IMG/VR virus record: IMGVR_UViG_3300032213_000971
Span: 1 to 60,505 of that record
Reading direction: 5' to 3' (one strand)
Length of the DNA: 60,505 nt
Source: a virus
Lineage: Duplodnaviria; Caudoviricetes
Shown: positions 8,587 through 40,803 of the stretch, piece by piece
Layout of the letters: every line of letters starts with the position of its first letter
Position numbering within the stretch: the stretch's first letter is position 1
Made by a program: the position numbers and the translations under genes
The notes under the pieces: generated by a model
Databases searched by the model: none
The model's input: only the letters and a program-made list of their open reading frames with translations
What the model was told of the DNA's origin: nothing

Positions 8587-10410
8587 ATGGCATTCTCATT
8601 CCAACCATTTTCCCCCCTTGCGAATGTTCAGCCAATAACCCTTGGTGGTTTGGATGTTTCCCAAATTAGGCCAATAACACCTTTCGCTGTAGGGAATACG
8701 AGGCCAGAACTCGTTGCCCAAGGAATTGCGTCTGGCACAAAAGACATTGCTTTAGGCATTCTCACAGGCGTAAAAGCCGCAAGAGAGCAAAAACTTCAAG
8801 ACCTCAAGGATCAAAGGGATCTCGCAAAAGAAGTAATCAAGCTAAAAGCTGCGCGAGAGGATAAACAAACTACTCTTGCCGAAACGATGCGGCACCATAA
8901 AGAGTTGGAAAGGTTGTCGCAGGAAAGGATTAAAAACGTCACGCCTCCTGATTGGGGTGGCGATTCATCCGAAACCACAGATACAGAGCAGCCATTGTCC
9001 GCTACGCAACCGCTCAAAACACCAACATCTACGCTCCCGACACAAGATAGATACCAACGTGACACTACTCCTGTTGGCGGGTTTTCTTTCGATACCATCA
9101 ACCTTCCCGAAGACCTGAATAATGATAGCAATCTGATTCAGGCAGATAAAATCCTTGGTGATCTTAATTATCCAGTGCCTTTGGAAACTTCTCCAACACC
9201 GCTTGGAATGAACGCTGTAAATGCTTTAGCAAATGTTGATTGGTCAAGCGTCAGGGCCAACCTTGGAGCAGGGCTTTCTGCTGGAGCAACCCCGGCAAGC
9301 ATTCCTGCAACCATCCCAAGTTTCGCAAAAGCCAAGCCCCCGGTTTCACTTTCTACTTTGGGTGGAGTTTCTAATGAGCAGATGTCGCAGATTCAACAGC
9401 AATTGGCAGAAATGCCGTTGAAATCTGTTTCCCCGGTTGCGGCACCTAAACCTGATGTAACAAAATTTGGTGTTCCTAAATCAGGTTTCAAAACATACGA
9501 GGAAGCTAGGAAATATATTGAATCTCAATCTGGCAACCCTAATTGGTATGCTGAAGCCACGCCAAAACCTGATAAGTCAGGAATGTTTGTTATTCCTTGG
9601 AAGCAACAAGACCCAAGCAAGGCGCAAACACAGGAGATGCAGAAAAAAAGGCTATCCAAGTTGGATCAGGCTGGACTTGCTTCAGAGGTAGATAAGTTTT
9701 ACAAAGATCCTATCTACAAGCTCATGCAGTCGCGCCCGATGCAGATTACGGAATTCAGTTCTTTGATGGACGAGGCATACTCCCCAAACCCCAAAAAGTC
9801 ACGCAGGGCAATCGACCTTGATGCTATTGACAAGTTTGTAATGTTTGCCCGTGGAACGCAGCCAACAGAAGCACAGTATTCAGAAATTCAGAACTGGACA
9901 CAGGGGTACTTAAACGATGTTCGTCAAAAAATAGACAAAGGAGTAGAAGGAGCAAGGCTTTCTGACGCTGATTATGAAAGCATGATGAACCTAATGTATC
10001 GTGCATACAACACAACGGCAGAACTGGTTAATCCTGAAATAGCCGACTTGAGGACGGTGGTTAAGGCAAAGCATCCAGACCTGATGGAACAGGAACTGCC
10101 ATCCACATATATGCCATACGAAGTGCCTTCGTATTTTGAAGACAAAATGGTAGAAGCGCAGCAGCAAATGAAGCAATATCATGCTCTAATGCAGGATGCA
10201 AAAAACAAGAATGATGCAACTACGTTCGCAGAGGCCAAAAAAAAGTACGACGAAGCAAAATCTGAACAGGACAACCTAAACAATTCTTTGACAAAATCTA
10301 AAGCATCACGACACCCATTAAATAAAAAAGCGTTCCGCCGAGGAGGATGGAGGCAGGGACTATTTGGTGGATCTAGCGATATTGGTGCAGCATTACAAAA
10401 TGCCCAATAA
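8587..10410 (+). CDS. Putative internal virion / DNA transfer protein
   Basis: 607 aa, low-complexity N-half and helical C-half, directly before the giant protein. Confidence 0.6.
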   Translation: MAFSFQPFSPLANVQPITLGGLDVSQIRPITPFAVGNTRPELVAQGIASGTKDIALGILTGVKAAREQKLQDLKDQRDLAKEVIKLKAAREDKQTTLAETMRHHKELERLSQERIKNVTPPDWGGDSSETTDTEQPLSATQPLKTPTSTLPTQDRYQRDTTPVGGFSFDTINLPEDLNNDSNLIQADKILGDLNYPVPLETSPTPLGMNAVNALANVDWSSVRANLGAGLSAGATPASIPATIPSFAKAKPPVSLSTLGGVSNEQMSQIQQQLAEMPLKSVSPVAAPKPDVTKFGVPKSGFKTYEEARKYIESQSGNPNWYAEATPKPDKSGMFVIPWKQQDPSKAQTQEMQKKRLSKLDQAGLASEVDKFYKDPIYKLMQSRPMQITEFSSLMDEAYSPNPKKSRRAIDLDAIDKFVMFARGTQPTEAQYSEIQNWTQGYLNDVRQKIDKGVEGARLSDADYESMMNLMYRAYNTTAELVNPEIADLRTVVKAKHPDLMEQELPSTYMPYEVPSYFEDKMVEAQQQMKQYHALMQDAKNKNDATTFAEAKKKYDEAKSEQDNLNNSLTKSKASRHPLNKKAFRRGGWRQGLFGGSSDIGAALQNAQ

Positions 10411-13400
10411 AATGGATTCTTTCGACATCCCCGACATTTCGTCTGATCTTATACACAATAAGGATCACTCCATTTCTGAAAAAAAGAAAAAGAAGGAAGA
10501 TGAATCTGGTTTTGATATTCCTGATGTGGAGTCGGATATTATCTCTATTGAGGATGGGAAAAAGGAAATTAGCCAAATACCTGAAGTAAAAGCTGATATT
10601 GAGGCAGCAAAGTATATGAGTGGAGAGATTGAGCCAACGGCTGCTCCTGCTCAAGAAAAACCAAGGCAAGAACAGTTTTCTCTGACTCCAGCATTGGGTT
10701 CTGGAATTCCATCACTAGAAAAGGATATCATAAAGACAGAACAGGCTCATGAACAGCCCGTTCGCGATATTGCAGATGATTTTGGTGATCAGTTGGAAAA
10801 GACCGGGCCGTGGGCTACAGAACTGCCATTTGTGAGAAAAATTGCCGGGGATCTTTCGGCAGAACAGCGCGAAAAGCTAATTGAGAGGCACAAATGGGTT
10901 TATGGTATGCTTTCCCCAGAGCAACAAGATCAATACTTTGCCGAAAACAAGCATTCTTCTCCATACAACTTTGAAAGTGCCAAAAAGGATGTGGGTTCTT
11001 TCATGCAATGGGTTGGAACTACAGGGAAGGCAGCGGTTGACGTTGGTCTTGATTTTACTGCTGCATACCTTACGGAACCACTAAAAGCAGCGATTGAAAA
11101 TGTGCCACAAAATGATCGCGTAAAATTAGCTAAAGAAGTACTTGATGCTGACATACGCAACGTAACCGGGGCGATACCTAATACGCTTACCGAGTCGTAT
11201 CGGATGCTTAAAAAGTATTACGGTGCTAAAACATTTTCAGACCTTACTGAAAGAATGGGTGATTCTGCATTGAACCCTGACCCAGTATCATTGTTGCCAC
11301 AATTAGCAGGCATTTTTTCATTGCCTACAATGATTGCATCAATGGGTAGGCTTAATGATCCTGATGCTGGAGGCGTAGCAGCAATTGACAACATTAATAC
11401 TTGGATAACCAAAGACGAAACAACTGCCAAAAAGCATTTCAAAAATCGCATGGAATCAGAGGCAGAAGACTCTGCTAATGATTGGAAAACAAGGCAAGGT
11501 TCTGAAAAGCTATCCCCGTGGTCGCAATGGATGTATAGCCCATTTGGACAGGGTGTAATGCTTGAACGAGAAAAAAGCCTTCTGCCTTCTCCTGAAGTAT
11601 ATGCCGCAACATATGGCATTACGGAAGCAGAAGCAGCAGGAAGGATTGAAGCCATTGCAGAAAAAAACGCTGACTACAATAGCCGGGATATAGCGCAGAA
11701 ATGGAACAACGAGTTTGATCAGGCAAAACAGGATTTTGGCGGATTCGTAACTGGGCCGATGGGAATGGGGCCGGGAGGTCTGGCACTAGGTGCCATTGGC
11801 CTCGCAAAGAAACTAGGCGGGGCAATGGAGGGCATCGGTCTTTCCGACGAGGCTTACAATGCGTATATGCGAGCGAAGCAAGCACGCACTATCAAGGCAA
11901 CAGAAAACTCCATTGAAGAGGCCCAGAAGCCACGTTTCTATGAATCTGGAGCGGACTACATAGTCGGTCAGCAGGCCGCTGCTGCCGATTGGGCAAAAGG
12001 AATGCTTGAGAGTATTCCAGAGGGCGCGAGACCATTTTTGCCTGTGGCTTTAAAGTATGCTGGGCTAGGAGGTGTAGGTGGAGCAGCGGGTGCTTTGGTT
12101 GATCCAGAAAGCCCGGGAATGGGTGCTTTGAAAGGTGCTGGTGTGCTTGCAGGGCTGGGCCTTGCACCCAGAGTCGTATCTGACCTTGGAAAGGCTAGGC
12201 GTGCGATTGGTGGTGGCGAGGGTGGTGTTTTCAAGACTGCTGGGCAGGCACCTGAATCAGCGTGGGCAACCCAAAAGTTGTTTGGTGGAAAAACTGGAGC
12301 AGTCGCTGATTATCTTACCGAGAATATAGGGCCACTTGCAAAAGCCGGGGTTCACCTAGGAACGCTGAACCTAGCTATGGGAACTATCAACAGCGACACT
12401 CCCAGCGAACTGATTAGCTCCACCATGCAGGGCATGATGATGGGATCAGGGTTCCACTCCTTGGGTGGCGGATTTAGGCTTTTGCATGAGAAGCCAATGC
12501 GGGAACAGATGGAGGACAGGAAAAAGCGCGATGTGGAGATTTACCATGCCGTGAAATCAGCTTCCCCGGAAACACAGCAGCAGTTGAACCGAATCGGAGA
12601 TTTTGAGAATGCCATCAATCGTTCAAAATTGAACACATTGATGATGGAGGCAAAACTGCAAGATGCATTGCAATCTGGTGACAAAAAGAAAGTCGATGAG
12701 GCGCAGAAGGCTGTAAATGTTGCAAGGGCAATACAGAAATCAATGTTGCGTGCAAACCTCCAGACCCGGAGTGAATATGGTCGTAATTTACGATCATTGT
12801 ATGCCGACATCCATGCTTTGGCAAATGGTGCTAGGAGTGGTCAGGGTCGCCTAAAGATTGAAGTACTGACCAGAGATCAGATCTTTGACCGTATCAATGC
12901 AGAAAACGATGCAAACAATTACGGAAAGACTCCAGAGCAGATGTGGCAAGAGTCTGGGATGCCCGGCAGATACAGCAAGAGCAAAGGAACTGCAATAATC
13001 AACGCTGACAACATTATGCGTAGGCAGACTCTTTTTGGTGAGTCTCCAACACAAGCCCTGCGGCATGAAGGTTTTGGTCATGGTCTTTACAACATCCCTG
13101 AATTTAGAAAGATGAATCAGGCCGCAGAGAGGCTTTTGTTTGATCAGCAAGAACGTGCGCTGAATGGTGATATCATCAAGCAAAGCAAAGGACGCTACAG
13201 CGACGATGATCTAATTTCCATGTACATGAACAACTACCTAAAAGGTAGTGATGTGGAGAAAATCCAATATGCCCGTGATATGGGGCTGTGGGATGAGGCA
13301 AACAACACCCTGAATCGTGAAGCCACAGTTCAGTACATGAAGGAAGAGGTTATTGCTGAACTAAACGCAGGAAACCTGAAATACGGCCTTGGTGCGCTTA

Positions 13401-16400
13401 AAAAGCAGGGTGGAGCAATTGAACAATGGCTGGAACACAATAAGGACAGGAATATGGTTGCTAGTGCCTTGTCCAGCCTCACCGGGATGGGTGCAAAGCC
13501 AATTTACAGCGAACTGCTAGAAACTGAATTCAGCCCTGAAGTAGTTGCTGCCAACAGGGAAGCACTTAAAAGCCTATCCAAGTATAATGGTAGGTTTGAA
13601 GAGTCAACGGAAGAGCAGTCTGGGACTGAACTTCCTGAAAAAGTTTTGAGTTCTGATTCTGCTCTTCGCACCCGTTATTCGCTTAACGGTGGCGAGTATA
13701 AGACGCAAATGGTGGCGGAAGTACGCGATAAGAACGGCAATCTAGTAGGAAGGCCGCTCCCGGTGGGAGATAATGCCGCCGAAGGATCTTGGGTGCATGA
13801 TGAGAACACAAACACAATCCAGCGCACCCGTGGATATGGTCAATTGCAAGAATCAGCAGCTATTCAAGTGCCTCTTGGTGGAAAAGTTACCGTCAAACGT
13901 GACTTTGTTTATGAACCAGATGGCATTACTCCAATCAGGAATTCCGATAAGGATATCAACACTTTAGAGTCGAACCGTGTTGAGGCTATTCGTCAGGCAC
14001 TTGAGACCGACGACCGTTTTGGTGGTCAGGGTCTGATCCCGGTGTCAGCAGATGGCGAAAGCTATAGCGGCATGCTTTCACCAAAGCAGCGCAAAGCGAT
14101 TGAGGATCTCCCGGAAAGCATTGTTCCGCTTTCAATGAAGGAAAAGATCTTTGAGCTTAATGATGCACTTGCAATGGATGATGGAAGCACGTTCGACATC
14201 GATTATGCACCTCGTTTGCAGGGCAAGAAGTACAAAGGTCGCCGGGCAGAGATTTACGGCATGATCCCGGTGAATTGGGGGCTTTCCAAGGCGGGTAATT
14301 TCTACATTCGTTCCGTATCTCTGGGTGCTTTGTTCCGCAAGGTAAAGGCCCGGAAAAAGTTGCTGCCCGGATGGTATGAGCCTTGGGGTGGGTCTACGGA
14401 GGCATTTATGGACGAGTTCCGTAATACCTACCTAAAGAACACCAAGGAAGGTAAGCCCGGGTGGATGGGCCTTGACCCGTCGAAACCTACGGAACAGACA
14501 CCTCTAGCAACGCTGAAGCAGAACAAGTTCAACGACATGCTGAACCTCGCGAATCGTCCCCGGGAGATCACTCCTCGCGACCCAGATAAGCGTAAGAGCA
14601 AGGCTGGAGAGGTTGATACTTTGTGGAGGTCATTCAGGGTGGACGCTATTGCTGACATGCTTAATACCCCGGAACGCAAATACCCGTTTGATGCAAAGCG
14701 TGTGTATGAGAATTTAATGCCACGGGAGGTTTCTGAAGAACTGACCCCACGGGATATTGAACGCGAAACAGGTAAAAATATTGATTTTGCGATTCCGCCT
14801 GAAGAAGAAGCAGCAAAGACTGCGTTGTACGAGAACAAGCGGCCACAATTTGGTGCAGCACGCACACTAAAAGAAGGTCATCCTGTATCTCTGCGAATCG
14901 ATATCCCTGCGTACAAGCGTGGAACCTATGTTGTTACTGTTCATGAGCAATCTGGGTCTAAAGGTGGAGTTGGCAGCGTTGTCGGGTACGACACGCATGC
15001 CCGGGTATACGACCCCGTATTTTCGTCCGACGAGAGGCTTGCTGGCAAAGTGGCTGCTGGAGGATCAAAAACTCCTCTAGCGACCGTTATGGGCGATTTC
15101 AACCCATCCCGGGAGATTCCCGCAGATATCGAAAGCTGGACACCGATTGGTTTTGACCCAAAGGAGCATAGTTTCTTTTATGATAAGGCAACTGACCGTC
15201 CTGTGATTGGTGGCGATGAGGCATACAGCGTAGGCAACACGGTATTTGTTAAAAACCCTGTATATGGTGAAAAGTCTGATTTTGCATACATGCCCCGTGA
15301 AGTAGCAGAAAGAGACGATGCACACCGCAAAGCTATTGATTCAGGCGACATGGAGACTGCACAAAGGATGGTTGACGAGGAAGCAGCTAGAAAAGGATAC
15401 GAAACTAAAGCATATCACGGAACAGACGCAGAAAAAATCGATGTGTTTGACAAAGATATGTTTGGTGAATCAACCGGGCAAGGTGACATCGGAGATGGTT
15501 TTTATTTTGCAACAACACCAGAGTTTGCTTCGGAATTTGGGAAAAACGTAATGCCTGTTTATTTGCAAAAAGGCAAATACGCTACCAATAAAGATTTGCT
15601 AGACCCAGACATTCAATCAGCAATTGACGACGACATGGGTTTCAAATCCGTTGCAGAGGTTTTGGCAGAAAAGGGATTTGATGGAATTAAATATGATCGT
15701 GGGAACAACAGGGTTGAGATGGTCGTATTCGACAATAATAAAGTCAAATCCGCAGATCCAATCACACGCGACGATGCAGGAAATGTGATCCCCTTGTCGC
15801 AACGCTTCAATCCAGAGAAAAATGACATTCGTTATCAGCCCCGGGAGGTTCAGGAAAAACTAGGTGCAGAAGAAGATCAGGAGCCTATGGGATATAAAAT
15901 CCCTACTATTCAGGCAAATATCCCTGAAAGCGTGGACAATGCAGCTACCTTGGAAAACGCATTTACAATTGCAGGAGGCCAAAAATGGCAAAAGGGAAGG
16001 GATCTTAAAGTTGCTTTGCAGCAGAATGTAAAAACTGAAGCTGCAAAATCCGGGGTAGATGTTTCTGTTCCATCACCACAAACTACCGAATATCTAGTTC
16101 GTGTTGGGAAGAAAGACGCTTTGGTTGCACTCAAGCAAAACGCAAATGCTATTGGATGGTACGATATAAAAACACGCCTAGCTATTAGGATTATGTCACT
16201 CATGCACCCTGAAATCATGACTGATGAAAATGCTAGACTTGCATTTACATGGGCATTAGCGACGACATCTAATGGATTAAAAGTAGGAAAAAATTTCCAG
16301 TTGGCAGAACGTGCGTACAGAAAATACAAAGAGACAGGGATTATGCCTAATGATATTGGCACAGGTACAGCAAAAGCTGCTATTAACGAATCTTTGGATC

Positions 16401-18049
16401 TTTTTAATAAACTATCCAAAGAATGGGGAACAGACAATCTGCGCCAATTCATGCAAACACCTTTTAGCGTTGCTGAAATCGCAGCTATCGACAAATCCCT
16501 AAAGCCGGGAGGTGAACACTCTCCAACTGTAGTTAAAGGTTCTGCTATTTTAGGGCCGAAGATTGGAAACGGGTTTTTTAGCAACCTGTACGGAAACTTT
16601 GATGCTCTTACAATGGATCGTTGGCTTGTGCGTACATGGGGACGCTGGACAGGAACCCTAATCGAAAGCGATCCGATTAATACTGAAAATCAACGCAATC
16701 GCTTGCAGGCAGCAGTACAAGCAATGACACCAGAGCAGGCCGCATCTATGAGCGAACTCGTTGGAAAGGATGTTGTAAGCACCCCAACAGATGAATTGGC
16801 TGTAGCAATTCAAAAGGCTTCTATGAAGCCTGAAAAGCGTGAGCAGATGCCAGACGAATTTAGGCTTTCTGGGAATGGACTTGCAAAGTATCTGGACGGG
16901 CAAAAAGAGGCACCAGCGGGGCCACATGAACGTACATACATCCGTTCTGTCTTCAGCCAAATACTTGATGAGCTACACCAAATTCCTGAATACAAGGATC
17001 TTACAATGGCAGATCTTCAAGCGGTTTTATGGTACGGAGAAAAGAGGTTGTATGAGACAGCAAAAGTAAAGATTGACGACGAGAACGACCCAGAGGGATA
17101 CTCTGATGAGGAGGCTCCTGACTACGCAAACGCAGCCGCAGAGGTTGCATTGGCAAACGGGATTTCTCAACGAAAACTTAATAATGCAATAGCACTAGAA
17201 AATGGACGCACAACAAATACACAATCAGGAGTTCAAGGGACTGACCAGCCCGGAGAGCAGGCAGCGTCTGGAGCTTTTACTCCAAGCAAAAAACGCTCCT
17301 TCGTCCAGACAAGGGCAATCGCTAGGGTTCGATCCAATAGAAGTGGCGATGAAGAACAATCCTTCTCTTACTCGCGAGGAAGTGGAGGAGGAGGCCAGCG
17401 CACACGGGTTCTAAAATCACTTGGTGTTCGTTATGTAGACGAATTCAAAGGTGGAGCGGGTCTAAAGCGGGTATTAAAAAACAACGGTGTTGATGCACCT
17501 TCGTATTTAGAAATTGATAACTCCGATTCTGCGAGCGTTCAGAAATTTGCTGACATGATTCAGGAAAGCAAAGAATCATCGCAATGGGGATCATCTGTGT
17601 ATGTGTATCCTAATGAGGATTACGCAAACATGCGTTTATTGATTGCAAAAGATGGCAAGTCAGGTGCTGCCGTTAAAAAAGATGGAGACATTGTTTCTGT
17701 ATTCAGCCATTCCGATAGCAAGGCTGGTCGTGCAGTACTTGAAGCTGCTATTGCCGCTGGAGGAACAAAGTTGGATTGTTTTGATACGGTTCTTCCTTCA
17801 TATTACGCTGCTCATGGGTTTAAAGCTGTTTCCCGGTTAAAATGGGACGATTCCCAAGCACCAGAAAACTGGGACAAGTCTGTTTATGGAAAACACAACA
17901 ATGGTGAGCCAGATGTCGTTTTCATGGCGTATGACCCATCTTATTATGGTACATACTCTATCAAAGACGGGAAAATTGCAGAATCCTATGACCAAGCATT
18001 AGAAATTCAAAAACGTGCTGTTAACAAATTGAAGAAAGCATCACAGTAA
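10400..18049 (+). CDS. Giant polyvalent internal virion protein (zincin-like HExxxH, ADP-ribosyltransferase, HhH-glycosylase-like and GNAT-like domains)
   Basis: HEGFGH at 13064-13081; AYHGT..GDGFYF..GFDGI..EMVVF (ART-PolyVal-like) at ~15300-15840; GPKIG..F..NL.G..TMDRW at ~16550; GGTKLDCFD..YYAAHGF near the C-terminus. Start is ATG 10400 or 10412. Confidence 0.85.
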   Translation: MPNKMDSFDIPDISSDLIHNKDHSISEKKKKKEDESGFDIPDVESDIISIEDGKKEISQIPEVKADIEAAKYMSGEIEPTAAPAQEKPRQEQFSLTPALGSGIPSLEKDIIKTEQAHEQPVRDIADDFGDQLEKTGPWATELPFVRKIAGDLSAEQREKLIERHKWVYGMLSPEQQDQYFAENKHSSPYNFESAKKDVGSFMQWVGTTGKAAVDVGLDFTAAYLTEPLKAAIENVPQNDRVKLAKEVLDADIRNVTGAIPNTLTESYRMLKKYYGAKTFSDLTERMGDSALNPDPVSLLPQLAGIFSLPTMIASMGRLNDPDAGGVAAIDNINTWITKDETTAKKHFKNRMESEAEDSANDWKTRQGSEKLSPWSQWMYSPFGQGVMLEREKSLLPSPEVYAATYGITEAEAAGRIEAIAEKNADYNSRDIAQKWNNEFDQAKQDFGGFVTGPMGMGPGGLALGAIGLAKKLGGAMEGIGLSDEAYNAYMRAKQARTIKATENSIEEAQKPRFYESGADYIVGQQAAAADWAKGMLESIPEGARPFLPVALKYAGLGGVGGAAGALVDPESPGMGALKGAGVLAGLGLAPRVVSDLGKARRAIGGGEGGVFKTAGQAPESAWATQKLFGGKTGAVADYLTENIGPLAKAGVHLGTLNLAMGTINSDTPSELISSTMQGMMMGSGFHSLGGGFRLLHEKPMREQMEDRKKRDVEIYHAVKSASPETQQQLNRIGDFENAINRSKLNTLMMEAKLQDALQSGDKKKVDEAQKAVNVARAIQKSMLRANLQTRSEYGRNLRSLYADIHALANGARSGQGRLKIEVLTRDQIFDRINAENDANNYGKTPEQMWQESGMPGRYSKSKGTAIINADNIMRRQTLFGESPTQALRHEGFGHGLYNIPEFRKMNQAAERLLFDQQERALNGDIIKQSKGRYSDDDLISMYMNNYLKGSDVEKIQYARDMGLWDEANNTLNREATVQYMKEEVIAELNAGNLKYGLGALKKQGGAIEQWLEHNKDRNMVASALSSLTGMGAKPIYSELLETEFSPEVVAANREALKSLSKYNGRFEESTEEQSGTELPEKVLSSDSALRTRYSLNGGEYKTQMVAEVRDKNGNLVGRPLPVGDNAAEGSWVHDENTNTIQRTRGYGQLQESAAIQVPLGGKVTVKRDFVYEPDGITPIRNSDKDINTLESNRVEAIRQALETDDRFGGQGLIPVSADGESYSGMLSPKQRKAIEDLPESIVPLSMKEKIFELNDALAMDDGSTFDIDYAPRLQGKKYKGRRAEIYGMIPVNWGLSKAGNFYIRSVSLGALFRKVKARKKLLPGWYEPWGGSTEAFMDEFRNTYLKNTKEGKPGWMGLDPSKPTEQTPLATLKQNKFNDMLNLANRPREITPRDPDKRKSKAGEVDTLWRSFRVDAIADMLNTPERKYPFDAKRVYENLMPREVSEELTPRDIERETGKNIDFAIPPEEEAAKTALYENKRPQFGAARTLKEGHPVSLRIDIPAYKRGTYVVTVHEQSGSKGGVGSVVGYDTHARVYDPVFSSDERLAGKVAAGGSKTPLATVMGDFNPSREIPADIESWTPIGFDPKEHSFFYDKATDRPVIGGDEAYSVGNTVFVKNPVYGEKSDFAYMPREVAERDDAHRKAIDSGDMETAQRMVDEEAARKGYETKAYHGTDAEKIDVFDKDMFGESTGQGDIGDGFYFATTPEFASEFGKNVMPVYLQKGKYATNKDLLDPDIQSAIDDDMGFKSVAEVLAEKGFDGIKYDRGNNRVEMVVFDNNKVKSADPITRDDAGNVIPLSQRFNPEKNDIRYQPREVQEKLGAEEDQEPMGYKIPTIQANIPESVDNAATLENAFTIAGGQKWQKGRDLKVALQQNVKTEAAKSGVDVSVPSPQTTEYLVRVGKKDALVALKQNANAIGWYDIKTRLAIRIMSLMHPEIMTDENARLAFTWALATTSNGLKVGKNFQLAERAYRKYKETGIMPNDIGTGTAKAAINESLDLFNKLSKEWGTDNLRQFMQTPFSVAEIAAIDKSLKPGGEHSPTVVKGSAILGPKIGNGFFSNLYGNFDALTMDRWLVRTWGRWTGTLIESDPINTENQRNRLQAAVQAMTPEQAASMSELVGKDVVSTPTDELAVAIQKASMKPEKREQMPDEFRLSGNGLAKYLDGQKEAPAGPHERTYIRSVFSQILDELHQIPEYKDLTMADLQAVLWYGEKRLYETAKVKIDDENDPEGYSDEEAPDYANAAAEVALANGISQRKLNNAIALENGRTTNTQSGVQGTDQPGEQAASGAFTPSKKRSFVQTRAIARVRSNRSGDEEQSFSYSRGSGGGGQRTRVLKSLGVRYVDEFKGGAGLKRVLKNNGVDAPSYLEIDNSDSASVQKFADMIQESKESSQWGSSVYVYPNEDYANMRLLIAKDGKSGAAVKKDGDIVSVFSHSDSKAGRAVLEAAIAAGGTKLDCFDTVLPSYYAAHGFKAVSRLKWDDSQAPENWDKSVYGKHNNGEPDVVFMAYDPSYYGTYSIKDGKIAESYDQALEIQKRAVNKLKKASQ
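17202..17414 (+). CDS. Candidate overprinted small protein (alternate frame inside the polyvalent gene)
   Basis: 70-aa ATG ORF with A-rich leader and a helical C-terminus (NPSLTREEVEEEASAHGF). The main frame is low-complexity linker over the same interval. Confidence 0.5.
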   Translation: MDAQQIHNQEFKGLTSPESRQRLELLLQAKNAPSSRQGQSLGFDPIEVAMKNNPSLTREEVEEEASAHGF

Positions 18050-34682: not shown

Positions 34683-34790
34683 ACAGCACATTGATAAATT
34701 CACTAAAGACTCACTACTCTGGAACGCTATTTCTTGGGCAGGAGTATTCATCTGTGGAAGCATCATGGCAATTTATTACTTCTTGCTAAA

Positions 34791-35009
34791 ATGAAACCCG
34801 ACATACAGCACATATTACCATTAAGCATCAACCACCTAAAACTTACAGAAAAGGAAGCATCAGCATTGAAGATGCTTAATGTTTGTACGTTTTCAGACAT
34901 ATTTAAAATTAAAAAATACGACTTTATAAAAATTAAAGGGTTCGGAAGAACATCTTTAAATAAATTGGTAGATAAATTTGCTGAATACGCAATTGTTATA
35001 CCAAATTAA
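34791..35009 (+). CDS. RNA polymerase alpha-subunit C-terminal-domain-like protein
   Basis: I..L.LT...A..LK...V.T..DI......F.KI.GFG..SL aligns by eye with the alpha-CTD HhH pattern. Confidence 0.75.
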   Translation: MKPDIQHILPLSINHLKLTEKEASALKMLNVCTFSDIFKIKKYDFIKIKGFGRTSLNKLVDKFAEYAIVIPN

Positions 35010-35053
35010 AAAATGAAACCATTCATCGAACCAGACCCAGACGAAGACCAACT

Positions 35054-35296
35054 ATGAGCCTAATACAAAAAGCCAAAAACCTAGCAGAGACTGCTATGGT
35101 GTGGGTAGACGCAGGAATGCCAATCGTAGATAAAAAGACCTACGACCATCGGATTTCCATCTGCAACAAATGCCCGGATCTAATCAACAACCATTGCATT
35201 CATTGCGGGTGCTTCATGCCAGCAAAATCATGGCTCGCGACCGAAGGATGCGCTCACCCACGCGACCAAAAATATTACCCAGAGATCAATCAATAG
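35054..35296 (+). CDS. Cys-rich protein (DUF6171-like)
   Basis: R..ICNKC....CIHCGCF...K......C. Confidence 0.7.
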   Translation: MSLIQKAKNLAETAMVWVDAGMPIVDKKTYDHRISICNKCPDLINNHCIHCGCFMPAKSWLATEGCAHPRDQKYYPEINQ

Positions 35297-35418
35297 GGGA
35301 TATTTAAGGGGCTTTTATAATTAATATGTCAAGACATTTCAATCGCATACCTTAAACCGGGACATCTTTTGCTTGTTAAAATACAAAAATTCTATAAGAG
35401 GGGGTTTGCCTAACGCTT

Positions 35419-36045
35419 ATGCCAGCACTATCTAACGCCAAACACGAACGCTTCGCACGACTACTTGTTCAGGGGGTGACGGCTACTGAAGCCGTTAGGA
35501 AAGTATACCCGGAGGCATCGTCTAAATCGTCTATCGTCATGGGCAGTCGCCTCAAGCATTCGCTAGAGATAGCGTCCCGGATAGCAGAGATGAAGGAGAT
35601 CATCGACAACCAGTTTGCAATGACAACCGGGGAGCGCAGGGATGCTCTTCGTCGCATGGGTGCTGGGGAGATCCCAACGAAGGTGACCCGCAGGGCAAAC
35701 GGAAAGATCGAAGCAACATACGACAGGCTGGCTGCACTTCAGTTGGACGCACGACTGGCAGGGGAACTAGGTGGCGATACGACTATCAATATGCACGCTG
35801 GGCCTACCCTGAAGCTGGATTTCCATGTGCTAGGCAGGAACACCAGCATGACCCCGGAGCTAGAGGCAGAGTGGCAGGAACTGAACAAGCCCCAGACCCG
35901 GGAGCTTCCAGAGCCACCACCAGAGCAGGAGGAAGATTTCAGCCTGTACGAGCAGGCAGAGATCAACCCAAAGAAAACCATGACATTAGATCAAGCGGCA
36001 CAAATCATCGATATTAGTACCGATAAACAGGATTCTACAGAGTAA
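35419..36045 (+). CDS. terS: Terminase small subunit
   Basis: MPALSNAKHERFA N-terminal HTH; upstream of TerL. Confidence 0.8.
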   Translation: MPALSNAKHERFARLLVQGVTATEAVRKVYPEASSKSSIVMGSRLKHSLEIASRIAEMKEIIDNQFAMTTGERRDALRRMGAGEIPTKVTRRANGKIEATYDRLAALQLDARLAGELGGDTTINMHAGPTLKLDFHVLGRNTSMTPELEAEWQELNKPQTRELPEPPPEQEEDFSLYEQAEINPKKTMTLDQAAQIIDISTDKQDSTE

Positions 36046-36100
36046 TCCAATTATCTATGACTATGTTTATCTGATGTTACAGAAGTTAAGTAAACCAAAT

Positions 36101-36298
36101 ATGAAAGCAATACTTGAATTCAACCTACCAGAAGAAGAAGACGAGCATGATACTGCCATGAAGGGGTTGCGTTATCGTTCAGTCATAGATCATACGATGG
36201 AGCTAATCCGCAACAAGCTGAAGCACGGTCACACCTACAAAACCCCGGAGGATGCCCTAGAAGACATCAGGCGGGAGATCCTTGTCTGGTTGCCCTAA
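36101..36298 (+). CDS. Conserved small phage protein
   Basis: MKAILEFNLPEE...R..LKHG. Confidence 0.75.
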   Translation: MKAILEFNLPEEEDEHDTAMKGLRYRSVIDHTMELIRNKLKHGHTYKTPEDALEDIRREILVWLP

Positions 36299-36303
36299 TC
36301 TTC

Positions 36304-36375
36304 GCCTCGCTAGTATAATGGCTATTGCGCCCGATTTGTAATCGGGTAATCCCGGTTCAACTCCGGGGCGAGGCT
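36304..36375 (+). tRNA. tRNA-Thr(UGU)
   Basis: Acceptor GCCTCGC/GCGAGGC, anticodon arm CCCGA-TTTGTAA-TCGGG, T arm CCCGG-TTCAACT-CCGGG; CCA not encoded. Confidence 0.92.
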
Positions 36376-36587
36376 CTCTTCTTCCCGGTGTAACCCGGGC
36401 CGACTGCGGCACCATAGATCGTCTTCACCCGGACGGCATCAGGCAACTGCTGGACAGCAACACGCAACCGGGCGGCATAGTCTGGCCCCATGAGGCGGAT
36501 CAGGTGCGCGAACTCTGCCCCGGCTGCGGCCAGCTTCAATGCCTCTGTGAAGGCGAACATTTCCTGTTCTTGGTATTGGTGCATCAT
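36357..36587 (-). CDS. Hypothetical protein, only credible minus-strand gene
   Basis: Fills the gap between tRNA-Thr and terL; helical sequence MMHQYQEQEMFAFTEALKLAAAG. Confidence 0.55.
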   Translation of the reverse strand: MMHQYQEQEMFAFTEALKLAAAGAEFAHLIRLMGPDYAARLRVAVQQLPDAVRVKTIYGAAVGPGYTGKKRASPRS

Positions 36588-36626
36588 TTGGTTGCCTCTA
36601 CTTATCATTGTTGCTAAATAACGCAA

Positions 36627-38519
36627 ATGAATATCGATACAGGCTATAGAATAACACCACCAGACTGCATTAAGGTTTACCATAAGCACGCATTAAACAT
36701 CCGGGCAGAGGCAGACCGGGATGAAGAGTTAGGTATCCTTTATGCAGCCAAATACATAGCCGAGCGAGTTGTTCGCACCCCGCCGAACATCACCGAGATC
36801 TCCATTCCGATAGCACAGGACATCATCAGGAAGTACGTCATGCACCTACTGAACAAGGATCAGTTTGAGGCAGCGGCTACTATCCTGTGGGGGCCGACCG
36901 TCTACGATTGGAGGCCGTTGTCTTCCCGGGATACATGGCGTTGCCTGTTCAAGCACGATCAAGTGCTGGTGCAAGGGGCTGGTGCTATGGGCAAATCATT
37001 CGGGGCTGCGGCATGGTTCTACCTAGATTGGTTCCGAGACCCGGAGTACACCTGTATCAAGGTCATCTCTCTCACGAAGGAGCATGCCGAGCGCAACATA
37101 TTCGCCAACATCAAGACGTTTCACAGGACGGCACTTGTGCAGCCGTTGACCGATCAAGAGGAACGAGCCACCAGCATTCAGGTGACCAGCGATTCCAAGC
37201 AGGGCATTCACCTAGTAGCGATCCCACGGGGAGAGTCAGGGCATGGTACGTTGCGTGGGTTCCACCCGATACCTAGGCCCGGGCAGGAGCATCAGAAGTG
37301 GGGCAGACTATCCCGGACGCATGTCGTGTTGGACGAGGCGGAGGAGATCCCGGTTGGAGTCTGGGAGGGCATCAACAACATCCTATCGACTGCCGACATG
37401 GATCACTACCGTGGACACATCAAGGTCTTTGGAGCCAGCAACCCTAGGGACAGGACTAGTGACTTCGCCCAGAGGTGCGAGCCGCAGGAAGGATGGGGCA
37501 GCGTGGACTGCGAGGAGGATTTCGAGTGGGACAGCAAGGAGGGATACCATGTGCTTCGACTGGACGCAGCCCGGTGTGAGAATGTCGTGGAGCGTAGGAT
37601 TGTTTACCCGGGCCTGCAAACCTATCAGGGGTTCATGAGCTACATTTCCCGGGGGCGCACAGCAGAGGCCATGACGATGGCAAGAGGCTGGTTCCCGGAG
37701 GAAGGAATCAGCATGGGCATAATCACCCCGGCCATGATGGACAACAGCATTGGTATCGTCCGCTTTATCGGCCCTGTCGTGCCTCTGGCAGCGTTTGACT
37801 TGGCATTGGAGGGGGTTGATCAGGTGCTATGCTCTTACGGCAGATTTGGGCTTTCTGACGGGTGGACACCGCAGAGCGGTCAGTTCATATCGTTCAAGCA
37901 GCCCAAGGTGGTACTTCAGCTTGACTCACAGATCCCATTCCCCAAGAAGCCGACACTTGAGCAGGCGGAAGCCATCATAAAGTTCTGCAAGCAGATGAGG
38001 ATTTCGCCTAGCTGGCTTGCTGTGGACAGGACAGGAAACGGTGCCGGGATTCACGACTCGTTGTGCAGCCTGTTTGGGAAAGATGTGCTTGGTGTCAACT
38101 ACTCATGGGCGGCGACTGACACGCACATTCTGGGAGACGACTCGCAGAAGGCATCGGAGTTGTACAATGGAGTTGTGACAGAGTTGATCTTTGGGCTGGC
38201 GAAGTATCTGGAGTTTGAGTTCTTGAAGATATCCCCCGGGTTCCGCAACGAGGATTTGATCAAACAGGCAACGGCCCGGAGGTACAAGCAGAAGGGCAAG
38301 GGAATGGTCAGGGTCGAGAGCAAGGGAGAGTATTGCAAGCGCACCCGGCAATCTAGCCCGGACGCATTGGATTCGTTGAGCATGATGGTTTTCCTGATGA
38401 GGCAGCGGAGTGGAGAGACTGCCCGGATGACCGACGAAAAGAAGGAAGCATTTGATCCCCGGAAGCGCATGGACAGGAGCATTGTTGACAACATGGAGTT
38501 TGTTGATATGTCTGACTAA
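36627..38519 (+). CDS. terL: Terminase large subunit
   Basis: Walker A GAGAMGKS, Walker B VVLDEAEE, ASNP coupling motif, nuclease motifs AFDLA, VDRTGNG and SPDALD. Confidence 0.93.
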   Translation: MNIDTGYRITPPDCIKVYHKHALNIRAEADRDEELGILYAAKYIAERVVRTPPNITEISIPIAQDIIRKYVMHLLNKDQFEAAATILWGPTVYDWRPLSSRDTWRCLFKHDQVLVQGAGAMGKSFGAAAWFYLDWFRDPEYTCIKVISLTKEHAERNIFANIKTFHRTALVQPLTDQEERATSIQVTSDSKQGIHLVAIPRGESGHGTLRGFHPIPRPGQEHQKWGRLSRTHVVLDEAEEIPVGVWEGINNILSTADMDHYRGHIKVFGASNPRDRTSDFAQRCEPQEGWGSVDCEEDFEWDSKEGYHVLRLDAARCENVVERRIVYPGLQTYQGFMSYISRGRTAEAMTMARGWFPEEGISMGIITPAMMDNSIGIVRFIGPVVPLAAFDLALEGVDQVLCSYGRFGLSDGWTPQSGQFISFKQPKVVLQLDSQIPFPKKPTLEQAEAIIKFCKQMRISPSWLAVDRTGNGAGIHDSLCSLFGKDVLGVNYSWAATDTHILGDDSQKASELYNGVVTELIFGLAKYLEFEFLKISPGFRNEDLIKQATARRYKQKGKGMVRVESKGEYCKRTRQSSPDALDSLSMMVFLMRQRSGETARMTDEKKEAFDPRKRMDRSIVDNMEFVDMSD

Positions 38520-38548
38520 ACAGATCCACAAGTGTGGAACCCTGTTAC

Positions 38549-38590
38549 GATGTCGTCCTAGGGGTGGGGAAACATTCTTTGGGCGGCATC
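38549..38590 (+). other. Long G-U-rich RNA hairpin between terL and tRNA-Gln
   Basis: GATGTCGTCCTAGGGGTG-GGGAAA-CATTCTTTGGGCGGCATC. Confidence 0.6.
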
Positions 38591-38595
38591 AGCAA

Positions 38596-38669
38596 TACCC
38601 TTTGGTGTAACGGTAGCACAGGAGACTTTGACTCTCCCAGTCATGGTTCAAATCCATGAGGGGTAGCCA
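38596..38669 (+). tRNA. tRNA-Gln(UUG)
   Basis: Acceptor TACCCTT/AGGGGTA, GGAGA-CTTTGAC-TCTCC, CATGG-TTCAAAT-CCATG, encoded CCA. Confidence 0.95.
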
Positions 38670-38699
38670 ATTTTTGTGAACGAGTGAACGAATGGATCG

Positions 38700-38742
38700 A
38701 CGCTAGGAGAAACGCTAGGACAAACGCTAGGACAAACGCTAG
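38700..38742. repeat. 12-bp tandem repeat ACGCTAGGA(G/C)AA x3.5
   Basis: Read directly from the sequence. Confidence 0.9.
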
Positions 38743-38772
38743 TAAAGTTTCATATATCAATCAATCCGCCGC

Positions 38773-39126
38773 ATAATGACAGATATAGTTGACATTATCC
38801 TTTTTAAAAGGACAGGTTGCCCCTGTTACTATTCAGGGGTGGTGGAAGTCATTTACCATCAGCATCTAGTAAGATGACCGATCTGCTCTTTCTGAAAGAA
38901 AAAGTGGTAGTTTTTTCCGTCAAAATATTAATGATCGCGCACATTCAATAAAAGTCTACGAGCGAAAACAATAATTGTTTCATATCGGGTATAATTCGTC
39001 GCCACAGACGAGTAATGTGACATATCGGGTGTAGTATCGTCGTTTATGGCGAATAACACACTAGCTATGGTGCCGTGCATGGTTTACAAAACCTTGCCAT
39101 AACTGCAAACATGTGTAGAGTTTGTA
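38773..39126. repeat. Array of short unrelated inverted repeats
   Basis: Examples: TCCTTTT-T-AAAAGGA, CCCCTG-8-CAGGGG, CATCT-4-AGATG, TCTTTC-T-GAAAGA, AAACAAT-A-ATTGTTT. Confidence 0.7.
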
Positions 39127-39128
39127 AC

Positions 39129-39205
39129 GCAGTCCAATGTTCCAAGGATAGGCGATTGGGACTCCAAATCCCGATGGGTTGGTTCGATTCCAACGGGCTG
39201 TGCCA
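39129..39205 (+). tRNA. tRNA-Trp(CCA), atypical D arm
   Basis: Acceptor GCAGTCC/GGGCTGT, TGGGA-CTCCAAA-TCCCG, GTTGG-TTCGATT-CCAAC, encoded CCA. Confidence 0.85.
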
Positions 39206-39212
39206 ATTTTTT

Positions 39213-39419
39213 ATGAAGACAAAAGCAACAATCATTGCCTACAGACCGTGGAACGGAAGCTACTGGGCTTACCGAATGGATTCCTTGAATCATAATGGCG
39301 AAGGTGGAGAACTAATCGCTCGCGGTGACACAATAGAGCAATGCAGGGAGCGCGTCTTTGAGTGGCTGGATGAAAAACGAGAAGCCGATCTTTTGAATAA
39401 ACTAAAAGAGAAAAAATAA
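39213..39419 (+). CDS. Small hypothetical protein
   Basis: ATG immediately after tRNA-Trp; 68 aa. Confidence 0.6.
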   Translation: MKTKATIIAYRPWNGSYWAYRMDSLNHNGEGGELIARGDTIEQCRERVFEWLDEKREADLLNKLKEKK

Positions 39420-39455
39420 AATAATCCGCGTTAATGAATTAAAATGAAAACTCTC

Positions 39456-39543
39456 TCGGGGGAGGCATTGAGGGGCGAAATCGGTCAGGAGGTGTAATAC
39501 GCCGCTGATCGAAAGTAGTAGCGACCTGAACCTCCTCCGACCA
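39456..39543 (+). ncRNA. Candidate structured ncRNA with closing stem and 3' CCA
   Basis: 10-bp stem TCGGGGGAGG/CCTCCTCCGA followed by CCA; inner stem TCGGTCAG/CTGATCGA; GAA/AGTA internal loop. Confidence 0.6.
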
Positions 39544-39687
39544 TTTTCGTAGCGTCACGAAAATGGTTTAGACCACACATGTGTCGAGTGCCAATAATGA
39601 ACGATTTTGTTAAAAATTGTGCATCACAATATTAACAAATTCCAATTATTGGTTGAACTTTCCGGGATTCCCGGGTAGTTCCGTTCT

Positions 39688-40182
39688 ATGCATAACCAAA
39701 TAGAAAGCATAAAAATAGATCAACTTGTACCTTACGCCCGGAACTCACGCACTCATAGCGACATTCAAGTATCGCAGATTGCTGCCAGCATAAAGGAGTT
39801 TGGGTTCACCAACCCGGTTCTGATTTCTGATGACCATGACATTATCGCCGGGCATGGCCGGGTACTGGCTGCAAAGAAGCTAGGAATGGAAGAAGTGCCG
39901 TGCATCAAGCTGTCGCATCTTACCGACACGCAACGCCGGGCATATGTCATCGCAGACAATCAGCACGCCATGAATTCCGGGTGGAACTTCGATATGCTTG
40001 CTGTCGAGATTGATGAACTGAACGACCAGAAGTTTGATATTTCAACCATTGGTTTCACTAATGAGGAGCTTGCTGACTTGATTGGAACTCCTGATGTCCC
40101 GGTGATTGATGAGGATAAAAACAAGGAAAAGGACAAAAGCCCGGTGATTTGTCCAAAGTGCAACCATGAGTTTGTTCCCTAG
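39688..40182 (+). CDS. ParB/Srx N-terminal domain protein with C-terminal Zn ribbon
   Basis: LVPYARNSRTH..IAASIKEFGFTNPVL..IAGHGR..ADN; CPKC.HEF. Confidence 0.92.
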   Translation: MHNQIESIKIDQLVPYARNSRTHSDIQVSQIAASIKEFGFTNPVLISDDHDIIAGHGRVLAAKKLGMEEVPCIKLSHLTDTQRRAYVIADNQHAMNSGWNFDMLAVEIDELNDQKFDISTIGFTNEELADLIGTPDVPVIDEDKNKEKDKSPVICPKCNHEFVP

Positions 40183-40224
40183 ATAACACTTGATGAATAA
40201 CAACAATTAATATACTAGAAAACT

Positions 40225-40803
40225 ATGGCTAAACCTATTATCGGAATGGTTCCCCCGGGAGGGTGGCATTATATTGATGGTGACGCAAAGATCACCGGGC
40301 ATAGCTATGACTCTTTAATCAAGGCTGTTGAAAGCTATCGCGCAGAGAACAGCCTGCCATCCGGGGACATAGAGGGGGATGTGAACTCATTTATTTGCAC
40401 CAATTGGCCGACATTTTGCCACGGTGTGGATATGGTTGCGATTACTTCCGTTGTTGCTCAAACAGCAGCCTCTGAATTGCAGAATGACATTCAGGCATGG
40501 GCAAAGAACATTTTGCACAGCAATCAACGGCATGTTTTGGTGAATGATGAACTAGCAGAGCAGCGTGCGAAAACGTGCTTGGGCTGCAAACACAACGTAA
40601 ATTGGAGGGCCGGGTGTGGAAGCTGTATTGTTGCAACAGACAGGATATGTGCAAGCGTGCGTCAGGGGCGCGACACGCAATCAAGTCAGGTGCTGGGGGG
40701 GTGTTCACTAATGCGTCACGACAATCGTTCAGCTATTTTCTTTGACAAAGATCATATTCATAAGTCTTCTTCTCTTCCCGACAACTGCTGGATGAATATC
40801 TAA
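40225..40803 (+). CDS. Cys-rich protein upstream of portal
   Basis: PPGGW motif; RAKTCLGC, CGSC and NCW. Confidence 0.75.
   Translation: MAKPIIGMVPPGGWHYIDGDAKITGHSYDSLIKAVESYRAENSLPSGDIEGDVNSFICTNWPTFCHGVDMVAITSVVAQTAASELQNDIQAWAKNILHSNQRHVLVNDELAEQRAKTCLGCKHNVNWRAGCGSCIVATDRICASVRQGRDTQSSQVLGGCSLMRHDNRSAIFFDKDHIHKSSSLPDNCWMNI

Follow-up and report, generated by a model that had tools for sequence, protein, structure and literature searches.

The gene-free tract between two tRNA genes of an uncultured freshwater phage (positions 38773-39126) is no single unit but is pieced together, as a mosaic, from six or more short modules. These modules, which were resolved by comparing the tract with its relatives, recur in other phages with an accessory and reshuffled distribution, and are followed in the genome by a conserved promoter. 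Our preferred reading, which we hold tentatively, is that the tract consists of cis-acting, putative protein-binding DNA modules around tRNA and late promoters, more than of folded RNA or of a decayed gene. The main rival to DNA sites is an RNA that is processed together with the tRNAs.

Genomic setting

The window, that is, the whole stretch of DNA analyzed here (60,505 nt), constitutes the complete record of an uncultured virus; its ends overlap by 123 nt, and this terminal repeat sits within an ORF. Almost all genes are carried by the plus strand. Around the tract, the order is TerS-like gene, tRNA-Thr, TerL-like gene, tRNA-Gln, tract, tRNA-Trp, a 68-aa ORF, a ParB-like gene, a gene for a 192-aa protein and a portal-sized gene (Table 1). 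The genome also encodes an ERF recombinase, a Cas4-like exonuclease, a DUF1376 protein, a DnaC-like loader and a 2561-aa polyvalent protein, the ORF of which (10364-18049) contains the ADP-ribosyltransferase domain of polyvalent proteins (PF18760, E 9e-14). Among cultured phages, a blastn search of the phage collection with 38500-39450 picked up 60 nt of tRNA-Gln only, and tblastn of TerL gave no match.

Two neighbors of the tract are unusual. The tRNA-Trp (CCA) has its anticodon at position 36 and, as its best Rfam match, tRNA-Sec at a sub-threshold 32.9 bits; this atypical form is kept in L010, L011, L020, L021 and L183 (other phages are designated here by L numbers). A small GC-rich ORF at ~36357-36585, tail-to-tail with tRNA-Thr, is apparently the sole gene on the minus strand. 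Its product matches no Pfam or PHROG family and shares 36% identity over 50 aa (E 1e-9, pairwise) with a 73-aa plus-strand ORF of another phage group, which is located immediately 5' of tRNA-Gln and modules and encodes a basic Gly-Arg-rich tail.

Palindrome content of the gene-free tract

An earlier note, made from the sequence alone, had described 38773-39126 as a gene-free array of mutually different, operator-like palindromes between two tRNAs. The lack of genes and the flanking tRNAs are borne out: the longest ORFs of the spacer are 50 aa (minus strand), 44, 33 and 31 aa, and the borders are tRNA-Gln (TTG) and tRNA-Trp (CCA). A decayed gene was rejected, as ORFs do not exceed 50 aa and tblastx matches to relatives are multi-frame, fall on both strands at the same places and involve non-coding homologues only.

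All nine palindromes listed in the note are found where it had placed them, but the perfection of their arms holds for five: TCCTTTT-T-AAAAGGA, CCCCTG-8-CAGGGG, CATCT-4-AGATG, TCTTTC-T-GAAAGA and AAACAAT-A-ATTGTTT are perfect as listed in an exact scan, while the other four are imperfect. ATAATGAC-10-GACATTAT pairs at 7/8 positions, GGTGGTGGA-5-TTTACCATC has six Watson-Crick pairs plus three G.T pairs, and TTCGTC-6-GACGAG and TGCAAAC-9-GTTTGTA are perfect in the inner 5 bp only. The exact scan added four inverted repeats: ACAGG-5-CCTGT, TTTCT-3-AGAAA, GAAAAA-8-TTTTTC and GGTTT-3-AAACC.

The shuffle test of palindrome density that had been proposed came out positive. Counting perfect inverted repeats with arms of at least 5 and loops of at most 12, the tract holds 12, of which two overlap others, versus 4.16 ± 1.98 in dinucleotide shuffles; none of 1000 shuffles reached 12. 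With arms of at least 6 there are 5, versus 1.14 in shuffles (p 0.004). The excess persists when 2-, 3- or 4-letter words are preserved (p 0.001, 0.006 and 0.004, respectively), and 0.08% of same-size segments along the genome reach 12. At ~2.7-fold, the palindrome excess is real but moderate.

Other gaps of the same genome gave 1 inverted repeat versus 2.7 expected (36046-36303), 11 versus 9.4 (34683-35418) and 7 versus 3.2 (39420-39687; p 0.047). Homologous gaps are enriched in L037 (15 versus 8.0, p 0.017), L197 (16 versus 8.9, p 0.020) and L183 (10 versus 5.2, p 0.06), and there is no clear enrichment in L021 (p 0.18), L116 (p 0.13) and L225 (p 0.36). Several palindromes of the tract are phage-specific and are not kept as palindromes in homologue alignments. 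As the note had it, the units differ mutually: the tract is non-coding, dyad-enriched and assembled from differing units.

Anatomy of the tract

The features of the tract and its surroundings are listed in Table 1. The 12-nt array is the top tandem repeat of the genome (26 TRF rows), with copies at 38700, 38712 and 38724, and the sequence of the tandem units differs between relatives. The imperfect inverted repeat that follows shares homology with the opening ~13 nt of module E (38787-38800); as comparison with L021 shows, the rest of this module, complete in relatives, is absent from the window. Homologues of hairpin H0 retain a hairpin, although, as aligned, their 5' arm pairs with another register of the conserved 3' arm.

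Table 1. Positions of genes, modules and repeats in and around the tract, ordered 5' to 3'
Feature	Position	Strand	Remarks
TerS-like gene	35419-36045		PHROG 51
TerL-like gene	36627-38519		630 aa
tRNA-Gln (TTG)	38596-38669	+	Left border of tract; ARAGORN; Rfam tRNA 59.2 bits
8-nt direct repeat, two copies	38676-38691		TRF
12-nt tandem array	38700-38742		3.6 copies; TRF score 79
Imperfect inverted repeat (7/8)	38773-38798		Contains TTGACA
Hairpin H0	38798-38812		7-bp arms, 1-nt centre
6-bp inverted repeat	38820-38839		Around left half of module A dyad 1; phage-specific
Module A, dyad 1	38827-38844	+	TACYA-N8-TRGTR
Module A, dyad 2	38854-38871	+	TACYA-N8-TRGTA
5-bp inverted repeat	38863-38876		Overlaps right half of dyad 2
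6-bp palindrome	38887-38899		1-nt centre; not conserved in homologues
Module B	38898-38917		A-run/T-run inverted repeat, conserved centre
Module C	38925-38975	+	Nearly invariant 51-nt core, no predicted structure
7-bp palindrome	38966-38980		1-nt centre; end of module C
10-nt box, two exact copies	38981-38990, 39021-39030	+	
5-bp hairpins after boxes	38996-39011, 39037-39052		The second with one G.T, read by eye
5-bp palindrome	39081-39093		Just 5' of promoter
Sigma-70-like promoter of tRNA-Trp	39081-39124 (block)	+	-35 at 39094, 16-nt spacer, -10 ending 39121
5-bp inverted repeat	39106-39124		Across promoter spacer and -10
tRNA-Trp (CCA)	39129-39205	+	Right border of tract; ARAGORN; atypical, 77 nt
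ParB-like protein gene	39688-40182		

The two dyads of module A lie 27 nt apart, and the pattern of dyad 2 has a single exact match in the genome, with 0.05 expected. The arms of module B measure 6 bp in the window and up to 10 bp in L183. At the position of the palindrome that ends module C, homologues carry a 10-bp gapless palindrome in three types and none in three types. A TATAAT-like hexamer stands between each 10-nt box and its hairpin, and boxes related to the 10-nt box are also found upstream of the tRNA-Trp promoter in relatives (family read by eye).

Module C is locally amplified in L175/L181 and in L121. L175 carries three tandem copies of the first box, which contains GATC, and in L121 a 24-nt unit of the core is duplicated. 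A tiny ORF in module C (8 codons, with a TAA/TAG-variable end) was considered and dropped, as its changes are non-synonymous and a ribosome-binding site is present in one homologue only (by eye).

Sequence conservation without covariation in modules A and B

For module A, RNAalifold predicts 0 pairs across 13 homologues. Covariation equals that of shuffled controls, with 405/500 and 374/500 shuffles reaching the observed score for the 'two hairpins' and 'nested' pairings, respectively, and the sole variable position is unpaired in 5-8 of the 13 sequences. Covariation at shuffle level means that the four half-sites vary independently, as expected if a protein recognizes each half-site. The dyad architecture is retained in 13/13 homologues. 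A minus-strand RNA, in which C.A mismatches would become G.U, was rejected, since on neither strand do the variable positions depend statistically on one another.

The consensus folding energy of module B across 16 homologues is just -0.56 kcal/mol, with a two-sided change in 1/7 pairs. Where module B lies upstream of module A, its centre fits better as the reverse complement in 6/7 copies (0.57-0.69 versus 0.35-0.47); where it lies downstream, the forward match is better in 9/9 copies. That the centre is kept when inverted indicates conservation of the duplex and not of one strand. This orientation-independent conservation is confined to module B, as A and C keep one orientation. Both A and B are thus conserved in sequence without base-pair covariation, a missing signal that, in 13-16 sequences, constitutes weak negative evidence. 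Module C is almost invariant, hence covariation is uninformative there.

Three palindromes of the tract have 1-nt centres and relatives carry gapless palindromes, which fits duplex DNA and suits RNA hairpins poorly. Folding energy of the spacer is ordinary compared to shuffles (plus strand, z -0.66; minus strand, z -1.67). At E <= 1, the Rfam search of 36000-40000 and of six related loci returned tRNA-type matches and three weak chance-level hits only, with nothing on the modules in these relatives. As far as tested, the operator-like character that the earlier note had ascribed to the units fits the A dyads, unchanged in 13 homologues without compensatory change, and the inverted B centre. 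Its alternative suggestion of a multi-hairpin RNA finds no support in the modules tested, given the lack of pairs in A, the negligible energy of B and the ordinary folding of the spacer.

A possible RNA released with the tRNAs

It is conceivable that the spacer is co-transcribed with the tRNAs and that RNase P and 3' processing release one or more small RNAs, the modules of which would act as protein-binding or base-pairing motifs at the RNA level. We regard this as a real contender, albeit on the unlikely side. Small stable RNAs occur in phage tRNA clusters, such as the tRNA-region RNAs of T4, and bacterial tRNA operons yield 3' external-spacer RNAs. Like these, the tract lies between co-oriented tRNAs and its modules often abut tRNA 3' ends, so that tRNA processing would release them. 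Considering the nearest tRNA within 700 nt, 18/18 distinct copies of A and 9/9 of C are co-oriented with it, and some of them begin 4-11 nt past its 3' end; the tRNAs abutted by differing modules themselves differ (Gln, Asn and one of unassigned type). Co-orientation counts against the DNA reading, as pure duplex sites have no need of it; it is, however, partly the default where a genome is transcribed one way. The hairpin maintained at H0 through register shifts, the structured plus-strand element at 39457-39539 in the same island and the stem of module E, in which relatives show changes with G.U on the plus strand (by eye), likewise fit an RNA. Contrary to tRNA-cluster RNAs, however, A lacks conserved structure and covariation, B has almost none and negligible stability, and B is conserved either way round. 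The plus-strand folding of the spacer, no better than shuffles, and the restriction of Rfam families to tRNAs in the window and six relatives argue in the same direction.

The element at 39457-39539, between the 68-aa ORF and the ParB-like gene, serves as a positive control, since its strong covariation demonstrates that the methods detect RNA structure in the same island. Compensatory changes affect 8 of its 18 pairs among 19 sequences; 98.0% of cells are paired versus 83.8% in shuffles. Its covariation score is 0.432 versus 0.151, with 0/500 shuffles reaching the observed value and slid controls at 0.05-0.10. The element consists of a long-range GC-rich closing helix with conserved internal loops and G.U pairs on the plus strand, and often has a T-run or a second hairpin behind it; in the window, this is a hairpin at 39548-39575. 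It is present in 22/80 TerL-relative loci, at times in two copies (L028), and has no Rfam match. It is a candidate new structured RNA, perhaps an ornate terminator or a riboswitch-like leader.

Module E is a conserved non-coding element of ~85 nt (L021 6330-6420, L037 5400-5480, L082 5350-5440), with about 30 distinct copies in viral contigs. Its 7-nt loop does not vary and is complementary to a likewise invariant stretch located 11 nt further downstream, so a pseudoknot is possible, and its flanking stem shows compensatory changes between copies, with G.U tolerated on the plus strand (by eye).

Distribution among relatives, distant phages and strains

The note had asked for unit gain or loss in relatives, and both are seen: the modules are accessory, gained, lost and reshuffled. 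TerL searches of the viral collection yielded 226 relatives, of which 80 loci were kept for comparison. The interval from TerL to ParB or the 192-aa protein ranges from 5 nt to 3.4 kb across these loci. By profile search, 15 of the 80 loci carry A, 5 carry B and 2 carry C, counts to be read with the unequal downstream reach of the loci in mind. Merely 72-75 nt separate tRNA-Gln from tRNA-Trp in L010, L011 and L020, whereas L021 has a homologous insert of 445 nt.

Pattern scans also detected modules in phage groups with TerL ~22% identical or of another family, and A, B and C are conserved in sequence among phages with TerL identity down to 22%. Module C amounts to 19 distinct copies; in metagenome contigs its pattern matched 8 stretches, most of which duplicate viral contigs. 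In every case terminase genes are found no more than ~3 kb from the modules, and at least six gene arrangements are represented. A TerS of PHROG 51 is near the modules in the window, L197, L183, L116, L093 and L220, and TerL is in L121 and L156. Modules are located downstream of TerL (window, L121, L156), directly 5' of a divergent terS (L183, L197, L142) or, in the L116 group, between convergent gene blocks. Order and number vary; B follows A in nine copies and precedes it in seven.

Co-occurring strain variants were found in contigs of four runs from one study, one of which (run X1) may be where the window comes from. One variant lacks 38824-38985 and another skips 38671-39208; in addition, there is a 12-nt deletion at 38710 and a replacement of 38677-38740 by 31 letters comprising a B-type hairpin (runs X2, X4).

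In L183 (10150-10215) and L197 (850-915), the divergent terS and module B are separated by a canonical GC-rich terminator hairpin that has a T-run and is encoded on the module strand; L183 has a perfect palindrome with 8-bp arms upstream of it (~10030-10046). This may be a small transcription unit. For the tract, contig ends were rejected as physical genome ends, as assemblies tend to break at hypervariable sites: the element occupies positions 1-41 of one 78%-complete linear contig, lies 1-3.4 kb from the ends of two DTR contigs and is mid-contig in another contig and in the window.

Alternatives at a hypervariable locus

This variability would also be expected of functionless conserved 'linker' patches that border a hypervariable gene-cassette site and are kept through homologous recombination of co-infecting phages, the palindromes being incidental or leftover terminators and promoters of lost cassettes. 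The wide range of the TerL-to-ParB interval, the patchy occurrence of A, B and C, the varying module order, strain deletion and replacement breakpoints within the tract, and the ERF recombinase and Cas4-like exonuclease encoded by the phage are all in keeping with such patches. We nevertheless consider them rather improbable: module C is conserved above the flanking proteins at 22% TerL identity, a hint that the sequence as such is under selection, A retains its dyads in every homologue examined, and the palindrome excess is statistically real.

A long shot is that the modules are portable non-coding cassettes for counter-defence or takeover, i.e., DNA or RNA mimics of host regulator or defence targets. 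Freshwater phages would then trade these cassettes at tRNA islands near terminase genes in the manner of anti-defence genes and, if true, phages would possess an 'accessory genome' that is non-coding.

Terminase recognition sites (pac/cos) and iteron-type origins typically combine a single locus with repeats, palindromes and AT-rich DNA. The tract resembles these: its modules occur at one locus per genome, at most ~3 kb from terminase genes and in L183, L197 and L142 directly 5' of terS; it is palindromic, contains the strongest tandem repeat of the genome at 38700-38742, and has a GC content of 39% versus ~50% around it. An essential single-copy site, whether a pac/cos that the small terminase would recognize or an origin of replication made up of iterons and an AT-rich palindromic region, is still very improbable. 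Unlike such sites, the tract is dispensable, being absent from close relatives (the 72-75-nt tRNA gaps of L010, L011 and L020) and in part or whole from co-occurring strains, and C is found in 2/80 loci. The natural deletion variants point to viability without the tract. Moreover, the DUF1376 protein and the DnaC-like loader, which represent the replication functions, are encoded 5 kb off, and the tandem units vary in sequence between relatives.

The least probable of these readings is the one put forward in the earlier note, a library of decoy sites that would soak up host repressors or defence proteins as a sponge, here taken to be of DNA or of RNA. Mutually different operator-like units at one locus, unique in the genome, accessory and exchanged between phages, would fit such a library, and many counter-defence genes are likewise accessory and exchanged. 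On the other hand, none of the results speaks in its favor, and 1-2 copies per site titrate little protein unless amplified by replication. The module C pattern matched 0 stretches in the bacterial genome collection (genomes of 185,579 species), so no mimicked host operator was identified, and the part of the literature searched contained no known precedent. A miniature transposable element finds no support, as comparison by eye of empty (L010, L011) with filled loci (window, L021) reveals no terminal repeats or target duplication, and the insert is composite.

A conserved promoter and a putative role for protein binding

The block preceding tRNA-Trp scores 9/12 in a promoter scan, and with a consensus -35 it recurs in L021, L010, L011, L183, L197 and L082. 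Promoter-like sites are not in surplus across 36000-40500 (5 found versus 5.4 expected), which counts against the DNA reading. The TATAAT-like boxes at 38992 and 39032 were discarded as promoters, as there is no properly spaced -35 (by eye) and no excess of promoter sites.

Returning to protein-binding DNA modules, the tract would be a mosaic of independent, portable, cis-acting modules, most of them dyad-symmetric or repeated sites for sequence-specific proteins. Phage or host proteins may bind these sites, and binding could tune transcription, or some other process acting on DNA, where the terminase and portal genes meet. The promoter just 3' of the modules would drive tRNA-Trp and presumably also the 68-aa ORF, the ParB-like protein, the portal and the remaining morphogenesis genes. 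As in operators, the conserved dyads and repeats are of operator size, conservation is strand-independent (for B only) and a promoter is adjacent. Among nearby gene products, the ParB-like protein, TerS and the small minus-strand protein would be candidate binders.

Further observations are at odds with DNA sites. The module motifs are found at the tract locus only within the genome and therefore lack a regulon-like pattern; in one group they lie between convergent genes, which is odd for promoter control; and the register shifts of H0 and the G.U-tolerant stems of module E represent RNA-like behavior in the same island.

The closest known parallel to protein-binding DNA modules is formed by multi-operator intergenic control regions of phages, such as lambdoid operator/promoter regions. 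As in those regions, short dyads are packed by sigma-70-type promoters, the arrangement is mosaic between related phages, and sequence is conserved without RNA-type covariation. In contrast to them, no repressor or regulator gene was identified beside the tract, its sites are mutually different instead of one operator repeated, it is flanked by tRNAs at the terminase/portal junction and not situated in an immunity region, and it is missing in close relatives.

Significance

The modules match no described family in Rfam, among cultured phages or, for the C pattern, in bacterial genomes, and the portion of the literature searched held no description of them. In phage annotation, non-coding DNA is largely passed over. 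The 460-nt gap described here consists of sequence families that are more conserved than the surrounding proteins, that move between phages of differing genome architecture and that come and go among strains of a single population. The neighboring covarying element at 39457-39539 is a candidate new RNA motif. Should the modules be RNAs, they would represent small RNAs of a new, tRNA-linked kind; should they bind proteins, they would mark an unrecognized layer of regulation where packaging and morphogenesis meet in a widespread group of uncultured freshwater phages. In both cases, the modules can serve as convenient markers to trace recombination between these phages.
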